From NCBI GenBank assembly GCA_964016885.1, contig OZ024742.1, positions 216,132,001 to 216,196,000 of the forward strand: 64,000 nucleotides of DNA, in the 5' to 3' direction. The stretch comes from Eledone cirrhosa (Eukaryota). The translations under genes and the position numbers were made by a program. Positions 27,888-64,000 of this stretch are shown here, piece after piece; within the stretch, counting starts at the first letter, position 1; every line of letters starts with the position of its first letter. The notes beneath the pieces were generated by a model, which was not told the DNA's origin, did not search any database, and saw only the letters and a list, made by a program, of their open reading frames with translations.

Positions 27888-28077
27888 ATAATTGTTTCTA
27901 CGTTAGGCACAAGGCCAGCAAATTCACCAGTGTATTACTGGTACTTTATTTTATCGACCCCGTAAGGATGAAAGGCAAAGTTAACCTCGGCGGGATTTAA
28001 ACTCAGAATGGCAAGGGCCGTAACTCTATGCGTCAAAGCATGGCGTCCGACCCTCTACCAATACTGCCAATCCACTG
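27888..28077 (-). mobile_element. SINE family A, full length (same subfamily as the 5S-fused copy)
   Basis: Nearly identical to 45321-45505, including the diagnostic ctacgttagg and ggcaagggccgtaactctatgcgtcaaagc. Confidence 0.92.
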
Positions 28078-42294: not shown

Positions 42295-43541
42295 TGTTCA
42301 GTGGTTTGAATGAACGACTTCCTCTCAGGACCTTTCAACATTATTCGCTCGGTTCGCCAGGGTCGTACACTATACAGATGAGAGACGTTGAGGTACATCC
42401 CATGCGAACTACGATGTGGAATATCTGTATCAGCATATGCCAATGTTGTCACCGTAGTTGTGTCAAGCAGCAGCATATTGAGTTGATCGACTCTACTCTC
42501 GCAGAATACGGACCGATAACAGAAGCAAAAATGGGCCGAGATAATTATATCGCTGGAAGGTCGGGCAGAGGCGGCTAACGCGTACATGGCATCCGTCATC
42601 TACTAGTGACTGACCGTTATGATTCGTCCTGGTCCATGACTGGAACGCTTGCAAGACGCTGTTTTCCACAGTTCGTATCCTTGACAGAGTTGCAGTCCTA
42701 GGTCAAGCAAAGACCGAGAGGGAGAGTTTGGAAAATGAAATGTTATCACGCTCTCACAGGCTTCAGGGAATCGGGCAGTGCGATTTGCAGAAACTCCACT
42801 TTGGCGCTCAATAGAGGTTTAGGTGCGGGTAAAAACGACCACGCTCTTGAGGAATATCTAGGGGTCGACGAACATCAACTAGCCACTCTTTTTCCAGGGA
42901 CTTTCAGTCCACGACCCATGGATAGTTTCCAGAAATTTCTGGCCTAGCAGTGCTACCGAAGAGATTTGCCAGTGCAAAATAATCTCTACAAGTATGGAAT
43001 ACCCTTAAGCCGGGCCTGCGCGAGATGTGCGCAAGACGTCTAAACAGTCCGCCACGCACGCTACGTTTGTCCGAGAATTGCTGAGTTGTGGATTTATGTC
43101 AAACACCTACCCCGCCGCCTTCCTTTAGCCGGTAAGGAGAGGCAGTGTTTAACTACCTGCTCACCATGGCAAAAGAGGTCGTGTAGTGGACACGTTTGAA
43201 AGGGCTGAAGACAAGCAACTATCTATTCAGCGAAGCCCTGATTAACGTTTTCTAATTTCATTTGAAAGGAAAAATCAGGGTGAAGAGAGATGTGCGCCTG
43301 TAGATTGGAGTTCGAGAAATGGGAGAAGGAACTTTTTCTGGTGGTCAGAGTCACCGTAGCTTTTTGTGCGCTTTCTGCACGTATGACCCTCGGAAGTCTC
43401 CCACATTTTGAGGAATGTTCCTTTGTTTCCTTTGTTTTCGTTTTTTGTTTTGTTTTTACACTCAGAAACACCTGTGTGTAACATTCTGTGCTGTCGTTAA
43501 TGAAATATTTTGTGTAAACCCCTGTGGTTAATAAAGAAAAC
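42295..43541 (+). mobile_element. L1/Tx1-clade LINE, 5'-truncated and internally deleted; same family as 60331-64000
   Basis: RSVRQG, ISAYANVVTVVVS and PMDSFQKFLA*QCYR motifs; the 3' end tgtaaacccctgtggttaataaagaaaa plus ATT tail is shared with the 60 kb copy. Confidence 0.88.
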
Positions 43542-43558
43542 ATTATTACTATTATTGT

Positions 43559-44046
43559 GGCGGTGGATTGGTAGTATCGATAGAGGGTCGGACGCCTTGC
43601 TTTCCAGCATAGTTACGTCCTTTTACGATCTGAGTTCAAATCCCGCCGAGGTTGACTTTGCCTTTCATCCTTACGGGGTCGATAAAATAAAGTACCAGTA
43701 ATGCACTGGGTATTTGCTGGCCTTGTGCCTAAAGTAGAAACAATTATTACTATTATTGTGGATTAGCAGTATCGGTAGAGGGTCGGATGCCATGCTTTGA
43801 CGTATAGAGTTACGGCCCTTGCCCTTCTGAGTTCAAATCCCGCCGAGATTAACTTTGCCTTTCATCCTTCCGAGGTCGATAAAATAAAGTACCAGTAATG
43901 CCCTGGGTAATTGCTGGCCTTGTGCCAAAAGTAGAAACAATTATTATCAGACGGTGGATTGGCAGAGTCATCAGAGTGTCGGACAAAGGCTTTGTGTATT
44001 TGATGAGTTCAAATCCCACCGAGGTTGATCTTGCCTTCCATTCTTC
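43559..44046 (+). mobile_element. Head-to-tail array of three SINEs (43559-43742, 43758-43947, older 43952-44046)
   Basis: Three successive A-box/B-box heads; the first is flanked by duplicated attattactattattgt (43542-43558 / 43743-43759). Confidence 0.9.
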
Positions 44047-44127
44047 CAGTAAAGGAGAAGGATCGATATAACCTTCTAACACCACCAGAAAATGCGTGAG
44101 CTTCAAGCTATGTTAGAATTTCTTGTG

Positions 44128-44408
44128 GAGGGTCGGACGCCATGCTTTACAGCATAGTTAATGAAATATTTTGTGTAAACCCCTGTGGTTAATAAAGAAA
44201 ACATTATTACTATTATTGTGGCGGTGGATTGGTAGTATCGATAGAGGGTCGGACGCCTTGCTTTCCAGCATAGTTACGTCCTTTTACGATCTGAGTTCAA
44301 ATCCCGCCGAGGTTGACTTTGCCTTTCATCCTTACGGGGTCGATAAAATAAAGTACCAGTAATGCACTGGGAATTGCTGGCCTTGTGCCTAAAGTAGAAA
44401 GAATTATT
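44128..44408 (+). mobile_element. SINE fragment fused to a near-identical copy of 43496-43750 (LINE 3' end plus SINE)
   Basis: 44157-44408 duplicates 43496-43750, with GTTA microhomology at the junction. Confidence 0.9.
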
Positions 44409-45320
44409 GATAAAAGTGCGTGTGCGTGTATCAGGGAGACAGTGAGTGTGACAGTTTTTTTTTAGTTTTTGGCATACATGAGAGACAGAGATTGTGGATA
44501 CATGCGTGTTTGTGTTTCTGTGTGTGTATTTATATGTGTGTGCGTGCGTGTGTGGGTGTGTGTTTGAATGTGTGTGTGAACGTGTGTGAGTGTGTGTGTG
44601 CGTGTATGGGTGTGTGTGAACGTTTCTATTTTACACTATATATATGGAATGACTTCATCCACGCTTCACTAAATATTTCTTGGAAAGTTACCGAAGGAAA
44701 CAGATAGTGCATCCTTTAGAACATCAGGAAGAATATCGGGGATATCTATTTTCTAATCTCTTTAAAGTACAACCCTTCATTCCTTATAGCTTGTGTATTT
44801 CATATTACCTGTATCGTTAATGTACAGGAAGGAAGATGGTGGAAGGCTGAAAATGGCCAATGAGATAGAAAGATACTAAAGATTGCACCTCTTGCCAGAT
44901 TTTACGGTCTATCTAGTCTATAAAATATGTTTAAGTATATACATACATATATATATATATAAATGCGTTTGTGTGTATTTTTTTGTGTGTATATGTGCGT
45001 GTATTTGTAGGTGCCTGTGTAGATAGATATAACTATATTCACCTTATATACATTTTGTAACCTGTAGCATGCTTTCACTAATCATTTTAGGAGGCTATTG
45101 CAGTCACCTGTAGACACAGACGCCATCTTTGTCCCTCATTAACTTCTCGCAATTTATGCGACATCTTCGATATGATAGATCGACATTGAGATGTCTGTCC
45201 TAGCATATGTGTGATATTTTTTTTATTAACCCCGAAAGGTTGAACTGGGAATAACTTAATTTTACAGCGTGGAGACGTAATAAATTTCTCTACTCTCTCT
45301 GTAAATAGTTATATAATAAT

Positions 45321-45505
45321 TGTTTCTACGTTAGGCACAAGGCCAGCAATTACTCAGTGTATTACTGGTACTTTATTTTATCGACCCCGTAAGGATGAAA
45401 AGCAAAGTTAACCTCGGCGGGATTTGAACTCAGAATGGCAAGGGCCGTAACTCTATGCGTCAAAGCATGGCGTCCGACCCTCTACCGATACTGCCATCCA
45501 ACGCC
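45321..45505 (-). mobile_element. SINE family A, 3' moiety of the 5S-SINE chimera
   Basis: Full head (GGCGTTGGATGGCAGTATCGG...GAGTTCAAATCC), core and tail. Confidence 0.92.
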
Positions 45506-45516
45506 ATTTTTTTTAG

Positions 45517-45635
45517 CGCTTACGGCACCTAGTGTTCCCAATCAGTCACCCATCTAAGTACTAACTAGGCTCGACGTTGCTTAACTTCGGTGATCGCACG
45601 AGAACCGGTGTTTTCAGCGTGATACGGCCGTAAAC
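45517..45635 (-). rRNA. Full-length 5S rRNA sequence, a retroposed copy and probably a pseudogene
   Basis: GTTTACGGCCGTATCACGCTGAAAACACCGGTTCTCGTGCGATCACCGAAGTTAAGCAACGTCGAGCCTAGTTAGTACTTAGATGGGTGACTGATTGGGAACACTAGGTGCCGTAAGC; about 119 nt, helix I closes, box A and box C present; followed by A8 rather than an oligo-T terminator. Confidence 0.95.
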
Positions 45636-48193
45636 AAATAGTTATATAATAATGAGATATCCATATATCCTTAAAACGTTATAATCCTATCCTGTATATT
45701 AACTACTATCATGTTAACTATATGAATCTACCGTGTGTATAACATTGTCTTTATGAAAATACTGGCACATTCCTATGTCTTAAAATGCTATTAATATGCA
45801 AAATCTCTCGTAAACGTAAATATCCTTTAATGAAAAAAAAGAAAAGAAACAATATAACAGACAGGAGCACATATGTAATGTGTAATACTTTGATATCGGT
45901 TCTTTAGTTGATATCTCGAAGCACATCAAATATATTTCTAATAACCGTGTAGATTAAAAATAAATTAGTAATTCTGAGAATCAATAGGTCTCTCAGTAGT
46001 TGGACGATGACATCTAAATTAAATATGTCAAACAATCTTGATACTGCCTTGATTGTTTTAATAAACTATATACTACTCCTATGATCAGAAATAGTTTCTC
46101 TCTCCCCCTCTTTCTCTCCCCTTCTTTTCTCCCTCGCAAACTCTCTAACTCTTCACTCAACCTCTATCTAACAAGAGCTCGCTATCTATCTCTTTCTTAA
46201 CAACCTTTATACATAAAGAAAATACAAGAGTTGAACATTTCGTTTATCAATCTGGTTGTGCTGTCAAAAGTGACAACTATTTTAATCATATTCATTAAAT
46301 GATATTTTTTCATTCATATTTTCTTTGGGGGTTTTGGAATCTTTAATCTGAGCTTTCTATAAATTCTTTGAATGAAAAAAAAATGTGGAAATTGTGTGGA
46401 AACAGCGGATAAAGGGATTTCTATTTAACACGCTTATATTTAAGGATTATAATATTTAGTTTTATTTTAATTTTACTGAAATAAAAACTATAAAAAACAC
46501 TAATTGCGATTTCTTTAATACTAGATGAAAAATTATCTTGTATAGTTGTGTTTTTTGTTTCTTTGTTTTTTCTTTGGTATAGTTAGTCAGGGGCTGGTAG
46601 GTGACGGAGGAACAAACCTTTTCGCGTGGTATACTGCAGTAATATCAAGATATCGAGTTATTCTCAAAGCGGAAACCACATCTGATTGCTTGTAATAGAG
46701 TGGACTCCACTAACGGCGTCAAAATCTCAGGTAGTGTTGTTAAAATGAGCGATTGATTCGATTTAACAAGAACCGATAAAGTTTTCGTCTACGCAATTTC
46801 ACTCATAAGGCCTCGTTTGACCCGCCACTCTGGTAAAAGACAATTGCCCAAGGTTACAAATAGAAATAAAAAGAGATAGGTGGCTATAACGTTTCATATT
46901 ATTGAATTATTATAGCATTATTTCCCAAATTGCATCACATTCCTTTATTTTCTCTGCCTGTACCCTTTTCGTACTTTCTTGTATGTTTGTAATTACTTTA
47001 TTATTCTACTTCTCTCGTCTCTTTCCTATTATAGTTTAGTATAACTAGTTACATATTTTATTCAAAATCATCTCGTCGCCAATAAATTTATCAACTTTTG
47101 CATTGTCAATTACCTTCCCCTTTCTTTATCACTTCTACTAAACTTCATTCCATATAGTCTCTCTCACCGGAATCAATTTCTCTTTCTTTCTTTCTCTCTA
47201 TCTCTCATGCCATCTCTCTTTACTCTAAATCTTTCTCTCTCTTCTTTTCACTTTCTCAAAACTATATTTCAGGTTTCAAATCTGCATTTCTTTTTAGTTG
47301 AGGCTACTATTCGCCATAAATGAACTAAAGCTAAAACAAAATTAACAAAAATAAATAAAAACAAATTCTTTAATATCCGTTTCGTCTAATTCTTTCACTC
47401 TTCATATTTCCCTGAATTAATCGAATATTAATCATAGAACCATCATCAAGTTTCCAATATAATGTCTACAAACCACTTCAATAAATTTAGAAGACAAAGA
47501 CAAAATATTTTATCTACCGATATTAAATATAATTTGTTTCTTCTATAAAACGATATATTGAATTTTATTTTCAAAAATTCGTGAAAATTAATTATATTGA
47601 TTTCTTTCAATAGTGTGCTTTAGTTACTGACCTCCGTTGCGATGTCTTTGTTAAAAGCGTTTGAACTTAGGACCGTAGGGTTTTGACCTACATATCATAA
47701 AGCACAATTCATGTGACTGAATATTCAAAGTTTTGTTTACCTTGCGTATATGAAAACTGATTGAGCCAACTACTCAATGTATAAATGATCCTAAATTGTA
47801 GAGTAATTTTCATGACATGCTCAGCGAGAGATAAAATGCTAAAGATGTTGCTTTAAATATGCACATACCTATAAGTTGTCAGGAGAAGTTATTAGATTGA
47901 CAGTTTCATACCAGGCATATACACCGATTCAACAGATTCAAGGGTTACAGGGAGGTTAGCATGGGTTAAATGTACGACCGATTTGGATGTTTTCAATATA
48001 TCATCTTTGGCTGATATTCCGCTTCCCCAAAATTGTTGGCCTTTTGCCGCTAAATTAGAAACCAATATTATACAAATATGATCAATTGTTGAAGCATCTA
48101 ATACTACAATGTCAAGTAGTTATTGCATTATAGAAAGATTACGAGATCAGAATAAACGTTATGAAACGTCATCAATGATGATACTGAATATGC

Positions 48194-50869: not shown

Positions 50870-51960
50870 TTGCTTAGTGTTTTTCCTGGTCTTATGGGAG
50901 GCTTGAAATGTAGACAAACCTTTATGAAGGCAATTAGAGAATAATTCACTTTTTTTGTTAATTAAGGTCTCATAATTATTAATAATCAACAGGGTCTCCA
51001 TTGTACGAAGCGCGCAGTTACTTGATATACTTGAGTTGCGGTAAACTCCACTATTCCGAATTTCGTCCAAAAAATGGAGTATTTTAAATTCTTTTCTTTT
51101 AATGACCATATAAGCTGTGATAAGGAAGTGGATGATTTCTTCTTGGAGTTCGAAAATGAGCACCTATGGTTCGCAAATCTGGCTTTAAATGTAGAAGAAT
51201 TCGATCCTATGTAGTTGTATGTGTTGTGATCAGTTTTTACGGTGCATTTATACACCAAATTACTATCTAAACAATTATTTTGCAGGGGGCAATCAATTTT
51301 ATTTCTACAATTACATTTTGGTTTATTATCATTTATGTTAACGCTATTATTAAGATCATTATGCCGATTCTGCTTTAGAATTTTTGTGTTTAATTTAGCA
51401 ATGTTTTGAGCCATATTCATAGTTGTAGAATAATGGTGTGTGTCTATTAAAAATGGAATGGTATTTATGTTGAGTAGGGAAAGAGGTGTCCAAAGCATTA
51501 AAGAATAATTTTGCAATTGGTGTTCTAACTGCTACCGAAGCAGGGGGGGGGGGACCATATGACTGATTTAGTTCTAGTTCTTTTCCTCAATTTGTTTGGC
51601 GTATGGGTGTTTGAATTATAATTATTAGAGTTTCGTTTATATATGCCATTATTTTTATCAGTATTAAAACTTGGATTATTATTATCTACATATTCTATAC
51701 TATTCTCATATCCTGCTCTTTTTAACGCATTATTGTAGTATGCTGCATTATCCTCAAATATAGCTTTATTGGCTGATATTCTATTAATGCGTTTTTGGAC
51801 ACTATTTACTATAGCTTTTTTTTTATAGATTTAGGGTGATTGGAATGGTTACTAACATAGTTTAAGTTTTCATTGGGCTTATTTATGAAAAGGGTAATAA
51901 AAGCCAGAGTTTAAGTTAAACGTAACGTCTAGGAAATTAACTATTTTTGGACCATTTGTG
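50870..51960 (-). pseudogene. Penelope-like ORF remnant: RT C-terminus/thumb, Cys linker and GIY-YIG endonuclease
   Basis: VNFLDVTFNL, KPN..YV...SNHPKSI, YNNALKRAGY, CNCRNKIDCPLQNNC, LVYKC..YIG..FKARFANH..SF and frameshifted E.LLI..LINKKSELFSNCLH. Confidence 0.9.
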
Positions 51961-60330: not shown

Positions 60331-63300
60331 TTTTCTTTATTAACCACAAGGGTTTACATAAAGTAGACATTAAGGACAGTACAGGAGAATAGAGGACGGT
60401 ACAATTTGGCATTTCTGCGTGTAAAAAAACGATAACAGAGGATGTAACAAAAAATAACAACGAAAAATTCCCCAATAGGGGGGAGACTTCCGAGGGACAT
60501 TTGTGGAGAAAGCCCATTAAAAGGCCACACTGACCCTGCCTACCAGGGTAAGAGCCCTCTCCCAGTTTTCCACCTTTAATTTACAGACACATACTTAGAG
60601 TAGGCCCATTCACTCGGGCCATACTTGCTTCTCTCACCCATCTTTCAACAAAATGCTGGGAAGAGAGCACTTCCCTCTCTACCCTGATTTTCCTTTTAAA
60701 ATGAAATTTAAAAAAGTTAATCAGGGCATCACCGAAGAGGTAAGTGCTCGTCTTCAGCCCTTTCAAAAGTGTCCACCATACTATCTCTTTCGCCATGGCC
60801 ACCAGGCAGATAAAAACTGCCTGCCCTTCCCGGTTAAAGGAAGAAGGCGGGGCAATCCTCACGATGGACTCAGTTGATAGCCGGATCCGTCCTACACGCG
60901 ACAGCAGGTGTTCGACATAAACCCACAAGTCAGCAATGCTCGGACATTGGACTAGTGTATGCAGGACGGTTTCGTCGCCCTGCGCGCATCTCGGACATGC
61001 CCGCCTGACGGCACCTCCATGCCTGTATAGTTTATCCCGAACTGGCAAAGCTCCTCGGTAGCACTGCCAGGCCAGGGATTTCTGGAAGTTGTCCATAGGC
61101 CCCGGCCCGAAAGTTCTTCTGAAGAGATTGGCTAGTTAATTTTCGTCGACGCCTAGGGTTTCCCCAAGTACGTCGCCGCTCTTCCTCTCCACTAATCCTC
61201 TATAGAACGCTGAGGTTGAGTTTCCACCGATCACATTGCCCAATTGGTCGAGGGCTGTGAGCACCTGAAGACATTCCAGTCCCCAAATGCTCCCTCTCGG
61301 TCTTCGCTTGACCCAGGACTGCAGCTCCGTCAAGGAGACAAGCTGGGGAAAGACGCGTCTAGAAAACGGCGACCACGCCTGATCCCCATCGAGGAAGAGG
61401 TGGAGATATCGTAGCCTGAGCGCGTGTCTGCGCATCATCAGCCACGACATGCCCAGCCCTCCATGTAGCGGGTGTTGGCAGCAGATGGACTGCCTGACCT
61501 TCGGAACGCGTCCCTTCCACAAAAAGCGAAAGAGGAAACGCTCCAACGCAGTCAGCCGGGGCTTAGGACAAGGTACGACGGTCAGGCTGTAGTAGATGAC
61601 GGACGCGATGTACACGTTAGCCACCTCCACCCGACCTTTCAGGGATAGCTTCCCCTCCGCCCATTTCTGGGTGAGAGAAGCCACCCTGCTCGTCACCTCG
61701 TCCCAGTTTTTGTCCGTCTGGAGGTCCGGACCGAACCAAACCCATAGCAATTTAACCGGTCCGTCCGTCCAACGCCCCACGACGCTGTTGGACGGCATGG
61801 ACCTGCCTCTCAAGGCGCCGAGCTGCAGGCCCACTGACTTGTCCTGGTTGATCATTGCTCCTGTCACCGCTTCGTATTCTCTTAGTGTAGTGCCGATCGC
61901 CTCGATGTGTTTGGCGTTCGACACCACTACGGTGACATCTTCCGCATATGCTGACACGGATCTTCCGCATCCTACTTCGCGCGGGACCCCCCTCAACGTC
62001 TCCAATCTGTGCAATAATGGCTCGAGAGTCAATACGCAAAAGAGGGACGAGAGGGAACATCCTTGGCAGACTGAGCGCATGAAGTTGACCGTTCACTCTC
62101 ACCACAGAGCAGATGTCGCTGTGCATGGCAGCGATCCAGCCTCTGAAGACGGGCCCAAAGCCAGCCGCCTTCAGGACTGCCGCTAAGTAACGATGGTCAA
62201 CCATATCGAAAGCATTCTACTGATCTAAATTGATCAAGGACCCACCTGGCCAGGTTCCCTAGCTACCCTCTCTACGATATATCGCATGAGGTGGAGGTTG
62301 TCGTGGATGGATCTGTCGGGAATGGCGCATGTCTGCGCCTCTCCCACCAGACCACCAACGAGAAATGCCAACCTCTTTGCTAGCACCTTGGCCAAAATCT
62401 TGAACTCTGTGTTTAGCAGAGTTATGGGCCTGAAATTATCTATGTTATCCCCTTGTTCGCTTCCTTTCTTAGCAGCGCCACCGCTCATCGGCTCACAGTT
62501 CTGTGAAATTCTCCCGTTCTGTTGCCAGTTGCAGTAGATGTCCGCCAAGAGGCCTCCGAACAAGTCTGGCCTCTGTACGTAAAGTTCATAGGGTAGACCA
62601 TCCAAACCAGGCGATTTACCGCTTGCGCAGCCAGTCGTTGCCTCCCGTACATCAGCGGCTTTTATCGGCTTTTCGCAACACTCCGTCTCAGTGGCCGAGA
62701 GCCGCGGCAGTCCGTCGAGGTAGAAACTAAAGTCCATCTCTCGATCCGGCCCGCCGCTGCCCCCTAACAGCTGAGCGAAATGTTGCTGAAAAGTTTCGCA
62801 CATTTACCGGGGATCGAGTAACATGCGACCGTCGTAGTCCACCAAAGACCGGATCGTGGCTTTGTTGCCACGATGCGCCTCCGCCACTCGGGCCCATTGA
62901 ACGGCTTTCGTCCCCTCGTGTCTGACAGCACGCAGCCTAGCTCTGACAACGCAGCCTCCCAGCTTTTCATTGAAGAATTGGCCAAGGGCCAATTTCGCAG
63001 CAAGTACGTCGGTGGCGATGCCTTTGCTAAGCGCCTCGTCTAATTTTCTAACTAATTCTCCCTCTACTCTATTTTTCTCTATTGCTAAAGCCTTACTAAA
63101 CCTAATGGACTCTATTCTAATCGCCCTTTTCAGAGCAAACCACCACTTGATGTTGACGATGACCCCGTCAACGCTCGTTTAACTAGTTCGCTAATCCGGT
63201 CTCTGTAGACCTTGCGCGCTGGTAAGGACGCGTTTAGCTTCCAGTAGCCGGGTCCTCGTCTATGAAGCCTATCTAAGTCAAGTACACAGATCACGAATTT

Positions 63301-64000
63301 GTTGTCCGTGTAGCTGACTATATTGAATTGTAGACAGCGTATGATAGACCTATCTATTTCCATACAAAATACTCTATCTAGATATGATCTGGATGACCCT
63401 ATGCGATTTGTCCATGTCCACATTGGCACATTCGGAAAATCCAATCGGTAACTGTCAGACAGTTCATAACGCCTGAGCAGGTTGGTGAGGCTCTTGCACC
63501 CTCCTCCCCTATCCGCTAATCCCACACAGTCCCAGCGAGCATCTAAGATCCCGTTCCAGTCGCTCACTAACATTAAAGAGCGGGACGTTCCTAGAAAGGT
63601 CTCCAGACGCCGGAAGAAATCAGGCCGCCCTGCTCCTGTTGGGGCATAGACGGCCACTAGCCTGAAAGATTGCCCGTCTCAGCTGGTCACGTCCAGCACC
63701 ACCAACTTACCTTCTGGGTCCAGGAAGATGGCCCGTATGGCGAGATAAAAACCTCTCCAAAAAGCACAGCAACTCCACCACCCGATCCAGGACGGCTGGG
63801 AGATGCGTACACATCGTAGCCGCCGAAGATCGGTGCGAAGGCCCGTGCTTCGGAGATTCTGGATCCGCTGATGGCCACTACATCTATGTTTAGTGACCTG
63901 ATTTCGTTGAGCAGGTGGCCCTGCTTCCATGATGACCCCAACCCACGCGCATTTATGCTGCCTATTCTGAGTGAGGTCATGTTGAAATGGAGTGGAAAAG
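60331..64000 (-). mobile_element. L1/Tx1-clade LINE, continuing beyond the window
   Basis: GC-richer block with ORF2 remnants and a 3' UTR ending AATAAAGAAAA plus ATT-type tail. Confidence 0.93.
60581..63980 (-). pseudogene. LINE ORF2 (APE endonuclease, reverse transcriptase, CCHC/zf-RVT), broken by frameshifts and stops
   Basis: MTSLRIGSINARGL, AVYAP, DWN, SYLDR and GYWKLN (APE); KSPGLDGLPYE, FRPITLLNTEFKILAKVLAKRL, QGC.LS and SAYAEDV (RT); CPRC..ETVLHTLVQC. Confidence 0.93.

Follow-up and report, generated by a model that had tools for sequence, protein, structure and literature searches.

A chimeric 5S rRNA–SINE retrocopy on contig OZ024742.1, likely one of dozens of independent 5S fusions in its genome

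The window described here is a stretch of 64,000 nucleotides (assembly GCA_964016885.1, contig OZ024742.1, positions 216,132,001 to 216,196,000; coordinates below count from its first letter). On its minus strand, at positions 45303–45653, a copy of 5S ribosomal RNA (rRNA) is joined through a short run of A to a short interspersed element (SINE), and the question raised by this locus is whether such an element is an accident that happened once, a member of a mobile family with a 5S-derived head, or a product of an error that recurs in this genome. The focal copy is a chimeric retrocopy of whole 5S and a near-full SINE, brought in by one insertion inside one target-site duplication (TSD). It is one of dozens of 5S fusions, which likely represent a recurring copying slip rather than a 5S-headed mobile family. 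The set belongs to the known class of small-RNA/retroelement chimeras (U6–L1 type); new here are the whole sense 5S, SINE partners that are for the most part full-length, and the near restriction of A-tailed joints to one SINE family, named SINE-A below, to which the focal element and the solo copy at 27888–28077 belong. Read in the direction of the element, its parts are the following:

45636–45653, minus strand: 5′ copy of the 18-bp TSD, from exact-repeat comparison, without a match in 68 loci of 5S arrays
45517–45635, minus strand: whole 5S rRNA copy, nt 1–119, with A at nt 81 and T at nt 95 (A81/T95, best read as the older allele); Rfam RF00001, 102.3 bits, model positions 1–120
45506–45516, minus strand: linker consisting of a 2-nt remnant of the 5S trailer (CT, 45516–45515), A8 (45514–45507, presumably a post-transcriptional tail), and one T (45506), from the sequence and a linker survey
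45321–45505, minus strand: near-full SINE-A, starting within about 3 nt of the 5′ end of the family
45485–45496, minus strand: imperfect A-box-like stretch in the SINE head, by eye, against the consensus as we assume it
45420–45429, minus strand: B-box match in the SINE head, by eye, consensus likewise assumed
45398–45401, minus strand: T4 run created by a C-to-T change, a possible RNA polymerase III (Pol III) terminator upstream of the SINE tail
45303–45320, minus strand: 3′ copy of the TSD, its first 6 nt overlapping the ATT tail of the SINE

The two 18-bp repeats are identical and cannot be extended, and their sequence occurs only twice in the window. It is found in none of the 68 array loci, and the flanks of the focal copy bear no likeness to array spacer. 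A sequence-only reading of this region had described 5S complete from its +1, a CT-A8-T linker, and a SINE, inserted as one unit within a perfect 18-bp TSD, and that description holds. On the strand of the element the TSD opens with ATTATT, identical to the tail of SINE-A itself, an overlap seen in most TSDs of SINE-A, and the duplicated target proper is therefore 12–18 bp long. The SINE, which had been called full and almost identical to the solo copy at 27888–28077, does agree with it at 174 of 182 positions (96%, eight differences; same subfamily), but it is near-full rather than full. The 5S part is whole and differs from the three present-day array types at 7–8 of 119 positions; from the commonest dispersed sequence it is separated by five changes (nt 11, 39, 92, 94, and 103), two of which, at nt 92 and 94, lie in what we take to be the box C region of the type 1 promoter. 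The T4 run in the SINE core, which had been noted as a caveat, is indeed present and is rare, being found in 3 of 82 near-full SINE-A copies. Since transcription begun at the 5S promoter would likely end there, short of the tail on which mobilization depends, the focal copy is probably an inert dead end. The junction between 5S and the right flank is carried without differences by contigs from public runs, which possibly derive from the sample of the assembly itself and are not independent.

A search of the 3.0-Gb genome, likely that of an octopod, with a query spanning the junction returned at least 40 matching places, which disposes of a one-off event. Among the 30 loci fetched first, the linkers range from T-rich stretches to A-runs, most copies have a TSD of their own, and the SINE halves belong to several subfamilies; the fetched non-array loci taken together include 40 distinct 5S–SINE-A junctions with an intact SINE 3′ end. 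Exact junction patterns number 7, as compared with 47,293 exact 16-mers of the SINE-A head (satellite units included). Partners were assigned automatically in a sample comprising the 100 A81 places listed out of 174, which run from contig C1 to the beginning of C9, as well as the nine dispersed places listed with G at nt 81 (G81). In the former, 5S is joined to SINE-C (our label for several related SINEs with tRNA heads) in 28 cases, to SINE-A in 21, and to the end of a CR1-like long interspersed element (LINE) in 18, so that 67 of the 100 are joined to a retroelement; five lie next to (TA)n only, four next to rDNA spacer, and the rest are considered below. Of the G81 copies, five have the CR1-like partner, two SINE-C, one spacer, and one is without assignment. 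By chance, about 0.3 SINE-A neighbors would be expected among 96 places. With the share of core-exact chimeras (19 of 30) as the basis for scaling, the genome total is extrapolated to roughly 60 5S–SINE-A chimeras, and to about 200 when every kind of 5S chimera is counted.

The third partner was considered as a mini-SINE or a SINE3 tail (short partner "B") and rejected as such, since it consists of the terminal ~60 nt of a young LINE that has an open reading frame for reverse transcriptase (RT). In Pfam this frame matches RVT_1 only, and the name CR1-like reflects our assumption from motifs. Copies of this LINE (L217–L246, G000:C1) are up to 99% alike, and its solos, lying inside (TA)n, are often reduced to these same ~60 nt.

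The passenger is not always 5S. Among 16 U6 loci outside arrays, inspected by eye, eight are joined to the same three partner types as 5S (three to whole SINE-A, one to truncated SINE-A, three to the CR1-like end, and one to SINE-C), four sit on two other repeated tails, two are gene-like, and two have no clear reading. The genome-wide check of the junction, by which identical junctions would have spoken for a family, gave variable junctions, the pattern of recurrent switching, which also involves several partners and U6 in addition to 5S. For U2, taken as a Pol II control, all 48 of 48 matches lie in clusters and have no bearing on dispersed copies. Tandem arrays are found for U6 at G000:C19:31.78–31.84 Mb (unit of about 1.8 kb) and for U2 at C3:307.35–307.45 Mb (unit of about 2.2 kb).

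The SINE halves give the same picture of separate origins. A tree was built from those of 32 5S chimeras and three U6 chimeras together with 44 solo copies, leaving out L208 (in which 5S adjoins a tail stub), L022 (array-type sequence upstream), and L020 (under 150 nt). On this tree the 5S label needs 25 changes, the mean for shuffled labels being 25.0, and a single clade of the 32 5S-chimera SINE halves is rejected (approximately unbiased test, p-AU 1.45e-10). A TSD of at least 10 bp surrounds the whole chimera in 23 of 35 cases and the SINE alone in one of 35; 22 of 44 solos have a TSD. The trailer type TTTACTGC is shared across partners (five copies with SINE-A, five with SINE-C, four with (TA)n, and one without assignment). 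Among 82 near-whole 5S copies, only four pairs have two or more rare changes in common, none of them with the same linker and one with the same partner class. Two chimeras, L008 and L018, have in common a 7-nt duplication within 5S that is found nowhere else in the genome, whereas their linkers and SINE subfamilies differ, and for this reason they are most simply explained by one variant 5S captured twice. Small RNA lies 5′ of a retroelement 3′ part in the same orientation, with one TSD around both, and the variable junctions, as well as a partner far more common alone, indicate independent origins.

The A-run at the joint bears indirectly on how the parts were joined. It precedes the SINE head in 18 of 35 near-full 5S–SINE-A chimeras (a set partly picked by likeness to the focal element), in none of 44 solos, and in none of three U6 chimeras, which leaves a switch of RT from the SINE onto oligoadenylated 5S, as proposed from the sequence alone, the best explanation. 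If the count is confined to the 95 copies whose 5S 3′ end is intact, 10 of 20 SINE-A chimeras have an A-run vs 2 of 47 chimeras of the other partners (Fisher p=3.5e-5). The trailer before the A-run is 0–4 nt long in all 17 parsed cases, whereas chimeras without an A-run mostly keep 7–14 nt, as judged by eye, and in L025 the A-run stands on a 5S broken off near nt 90. These features are consistent with the tailing of RNA that had been trimmed or broken. What the R2 enzyme adds to cDNA is mainly A (PMC8857657), which would appear as T on the strand of the element and would suit U-ended acceptors.

We consider it probable that a LINE RT completed the copy of the SINE RNA and then switched to an A-tailed 5S RNA by a jump to its 3′ end, the focal element being one of dozens of such independent fusions. 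In the sequence of events that we propose, a LINE enzyme, probably of the Tx1/L1 clade with an ATT-repeat end, would prime on the SINE tail at an ATT-rich target, copy through to the 5′ end of the SINE, jump to trimmed, oligoadenylated 5S RNA, and copy it to nt +1, after which second-strand synthesis would leave the TSD. Two pools of acceptors may have been available: nascent 5S with its full U-rich trailer, used with all partners, and trimmed, A-tailed 5S, used almost only in SINE-A events. Partners are full-length in 15 of 20 chimeras vs 44 of 108 solos (p=0.007; the solos counted as truncated include copies with diverged heads). The partner LINE of SINE-A is probably of the Tx1/L1 clade, as weakly suggested by a broken L1/Tx1-type LINE in the window itself (60581–64000, minus strand), which retains pieces of RVT_1 and zf-RVT and has a short end motif and an ATT tail like those of SINE-A. 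Jumping between templates by non-LTR (long terminal repeat) RTs has been described in vitro (PMC8857657, PMC10830420). It is possible, although we lean slightly against it, that end-to-end jumping takes place in vivo with a taste specific to each enzyme, the SINE-A RT taking oligoadenylated, trimmed or broken 5S, and the CR1-like and SINE-C machineries taking U-ended precursors. If this were true, the genome would hold a germline record of 5S 3′-end processing and of extinct 5S gene types, as well as a standing pool of prototypes of 5S-headed SINEs, none of which has taken off.

Several points weigh against RT jumping and against independent fusions. The Tx1 partner is assigned from a short end motif that the two have in common, the resolution of the tree is low, with strong support for 6 of 76 branches, and 24 of the 100 listed A81 places received no automatic partner call, about 10 of which have short or diverged partner tails by eye. 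The empty site was not recovered, as contigs of other individuals or species did not span it. Jumping has been argued to be possibly not physiological (PMC8857657, section 10), and untemplated synthesis during the jump could account for the A-run. The RNAs that carry oligo(A) tails in human cells are mainly small nucleolar RNAs, and Pol III RNAs mostly receive a single A (PMC12811392), on which account A-tailed 5S RNA is something that we infer. Above all, DNA sequence cannot tell RT jumping from prior ligation of the two RNAs, in which RtcB or another ligase would produce a 5S–SINE chimeric RNA that is then retrotransposed as one template. Ligation is the reported route to human U6/L1 chimeras (PMC6789731), and a cyclic phosphate can be present on mature human 5S (PMC4005677).

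In this genome, ligation would be in keeping with U6 being joined to the same partners and with CR1-like partners starting at nearly one position, as a cleavage site could give; however, that start point is, by eye, also common in solo truncated copies. It recurs in both 5S and U6 chimeras. The enrichment of full-length partners in chimeras speaks against ligation, and A-tails confined to one partner would be hard to account for if a ligase worked ahead of reverse transcription. A polymerase that makes oligo(A) should leave a 3′-OH, and a full-length Pol III transcript of a SINE should be 5′-phosphorylated. As RtcB needs a cyclic phosphate and a 5′-OH, its activity dropping sharply with a 3′-OH or a 5′-triphosphate (PMC6789731), the ends expected here are poor substrates, and A-tailed 5S on a whole SINE fits RtcB ligation poorly. 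Ligation is improbable as a general explanation, but it may apply to truncated partners.

A true dimeric SINE family with a 5S head, one of the two options of the sequence-only reading, or a few small families of this kind, amplified from master chimeras, is a much weaker candidate. In its favor, most dispersed copies are A81 and the arrays G81. Exact cores number 174 for A81 (nearly all dispersed, among the 100 listed) vs 790 for G81, of which 91 of 100 listed sit on the C4 array. However, A81 as the mark of a master chimera was rejected, since gene-like copies that retain array spacer (L068, L123) also have it, and since it is almost the sole allele in the run of another organism that has SINE-A (G amounts to 35.7 of 153,152 in summed contig depth, a rough measure). 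A81 is for these reasons best read as an older gene allele. Old copies have A81/T95, and present arrays have G81/T95 and G81/C95, a series that looks compensatory through a G–U step if, as we assume, nt 81 and 95 pair. The two A81 units within the C4 array (L190, L191) were not counted as ancestral; with C95, each resembles the modern type altered by one change.

Some linkers do recur, as a family would predict, but the recurrent ones are trailers of 5S genes common to several partners. Array trailers finish in long T-runs, several chimeras keep such a trailer down to the terminator (e.g., L003, L018, and L026), and some chimera trailers equal those of living arrays or orphan genes. Of the three array types, two are located on C4, their units measuring about 870 and 1380 bp, and the third consists of inverted pairs on C14, where the genes at 42.77 Mb (L037–L047) alternate in orientation, whereas those of the C4 arrays stand head to tail. 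Families of 5S on tRNA-derived SINEs do exist, HaSE3 (PMC3272025) and Deu/AmnSINE1 (as cited in PMC4758252) being examples, and the 5S-derived head with its type 1 promoter region, as required of a SINE3, is present here as whole 5S. A uniform structure is nevertheless given as the criterion for a SINE family (PMC7245038, PMC5786205, PMC4494074), and the linkers here differ in length and type. Descent from master copies would further leave one clade and shared diagnostic changes; the single clade is rejected, and the four pairs with common rare changes are all that the near-whole 5S copies offer. A family is largely refuted for the sampled loci, and we regard it as very improbable overall.

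The best candidate for a transcribed 5S–SINE is a locus (L022/L068, G000:C692:24307–24523) in which about 230 bp of C4-type spacer and a whole 5S are fused straight to SINE-A; it is put forward because its upstream sequence is like that of a real 5S gene. No terminator and no TSD were found there, and its junction occurs in no other sampled copy.

As improbable as a family are two independent insertions (a poly(A) 5S retrocopy followed by a SINE in its tail, or the reverse) or recombination between 5S and SINE DNA. The abundance of SINE-A and its stacking in AT-rich tails speak for them, but the TSD spans both parts in the focal element and in 23 of 35 chimeras, a separate TSD of the SINE was not found in 34 of 35, the targets of SINE-A open with ATTA rather than A-runs, and the focal flanks do not resemble array spacer.

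With recurrent fusion, probably by RT jumping, as the preferred reading, the set can be compared with known systems. In platypus (Mon-1, L2) and anole (AnolisSINE2, L1, L2, RTE), U6/SINE and U6/LINE chimeric retrocopies have been described (Doucet et al. 2015, PMC4476161) that likewise have a small Pol III RNA at the 5′ end, a SINE or LINE 3′ part, a TSD, and several LINE clades per genome, with few solo poly(A) copies where the LINEs are stringent. In the present genome 5S is a passenger in addition to U6, the main text of that paper making no mention of "5S rRNA"; moreover, 5S is mostly whole from near +1 and often has a terminator trailer or oligo(A), the SINE is mostly full-length, and the chimeras probably belong to a mollusc. 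The U6/L1 chimeras of humans (Moldovan et al. 2019, PMC6789731) similarly join a whole sense Pol III RNA with a U-run end to a retroelement 3′ part, although their L1 partners are variably 5′-truncated, whereas many SINEs here are whole and many 5S ends A-tailed. In human 5S/L1 chimeras (bioRxiv 10.1101/2025.02.02.635956), 5S is also taken up in retrotransposition with a TSD, mostly in antisense and cut at nt 46 or 90, whereas the copies here are sense and whole, with only one antisense case noticed. In that case (L186, G000:C4:42122155–42124155), antisense 5S of nt ~11–91 stands head to head with SINE-A, with a flanking repeat seen by eye, in the twin-priming-like layout of the human antisense chimeras cut at nt 90. 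HaSE3 (PMC3272025) and Deu/AmnSINE1 also have 5S placed 5′ of a pre-existing SINE, and template switching has been proposed as their origin; they are amplified and uniform and have lost the tRNA head, whereas the chimeras here vary in structure, retain the SINE head, and have not been amplified. They thus represent the predicted raw material of 5S-headed SINE families rather than a family. Further context is provided by PMC5753468 and PMC10498592. A literature search, with most subscription papers outside its reach, found no account of cephalopod 5S chimeras.

The focal element itself is ordinary within its genome, and the interest lies in the set. The known ligase should be poor at joining A-tailed 5S to whole SINEs, and this class of chimera therefore bears on the choice between RT jumping and RNA ligation. 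For the birth of SINE3, template switching has often been invoked as a single ancient event, whereas the fusion step here is repeated (roughly 60 SINE-A chimeras, as extrapolated) without sign of amplification, which would point to transcription or termination, and not fusion, as the bottleneck.

The tRNA origin of SINE-A, assumed in the sequence-only reading, is unconfirmed. No Rfam tRNA match at E<=10 was found in the head of the focal SINE or in three other SINE-A chimeras, and ARAGORN reported no tRNA over the window; the two SINE-C heads both matched (2/2, 31.3 and 28.1 bits). At G000:C1:10.32–10.35 Mb, SINE-A head motifs are densely spaced at multiples of about 45 bp, apparently forming a satellite derived from the SINE head. 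Within the window, at 43500–44400, a Tx1-like 3′ end has SINE-A copies stacked in its ATT tail, and those at 43559 and 44220 share their upstream flank, indicating a local duplication of about 660 bp. Apart from these, a 181-aa frame at 50986–51531 (minus strand) resembles what we take to be the GIY-YIG endonuclease end of a Penelope-type element.

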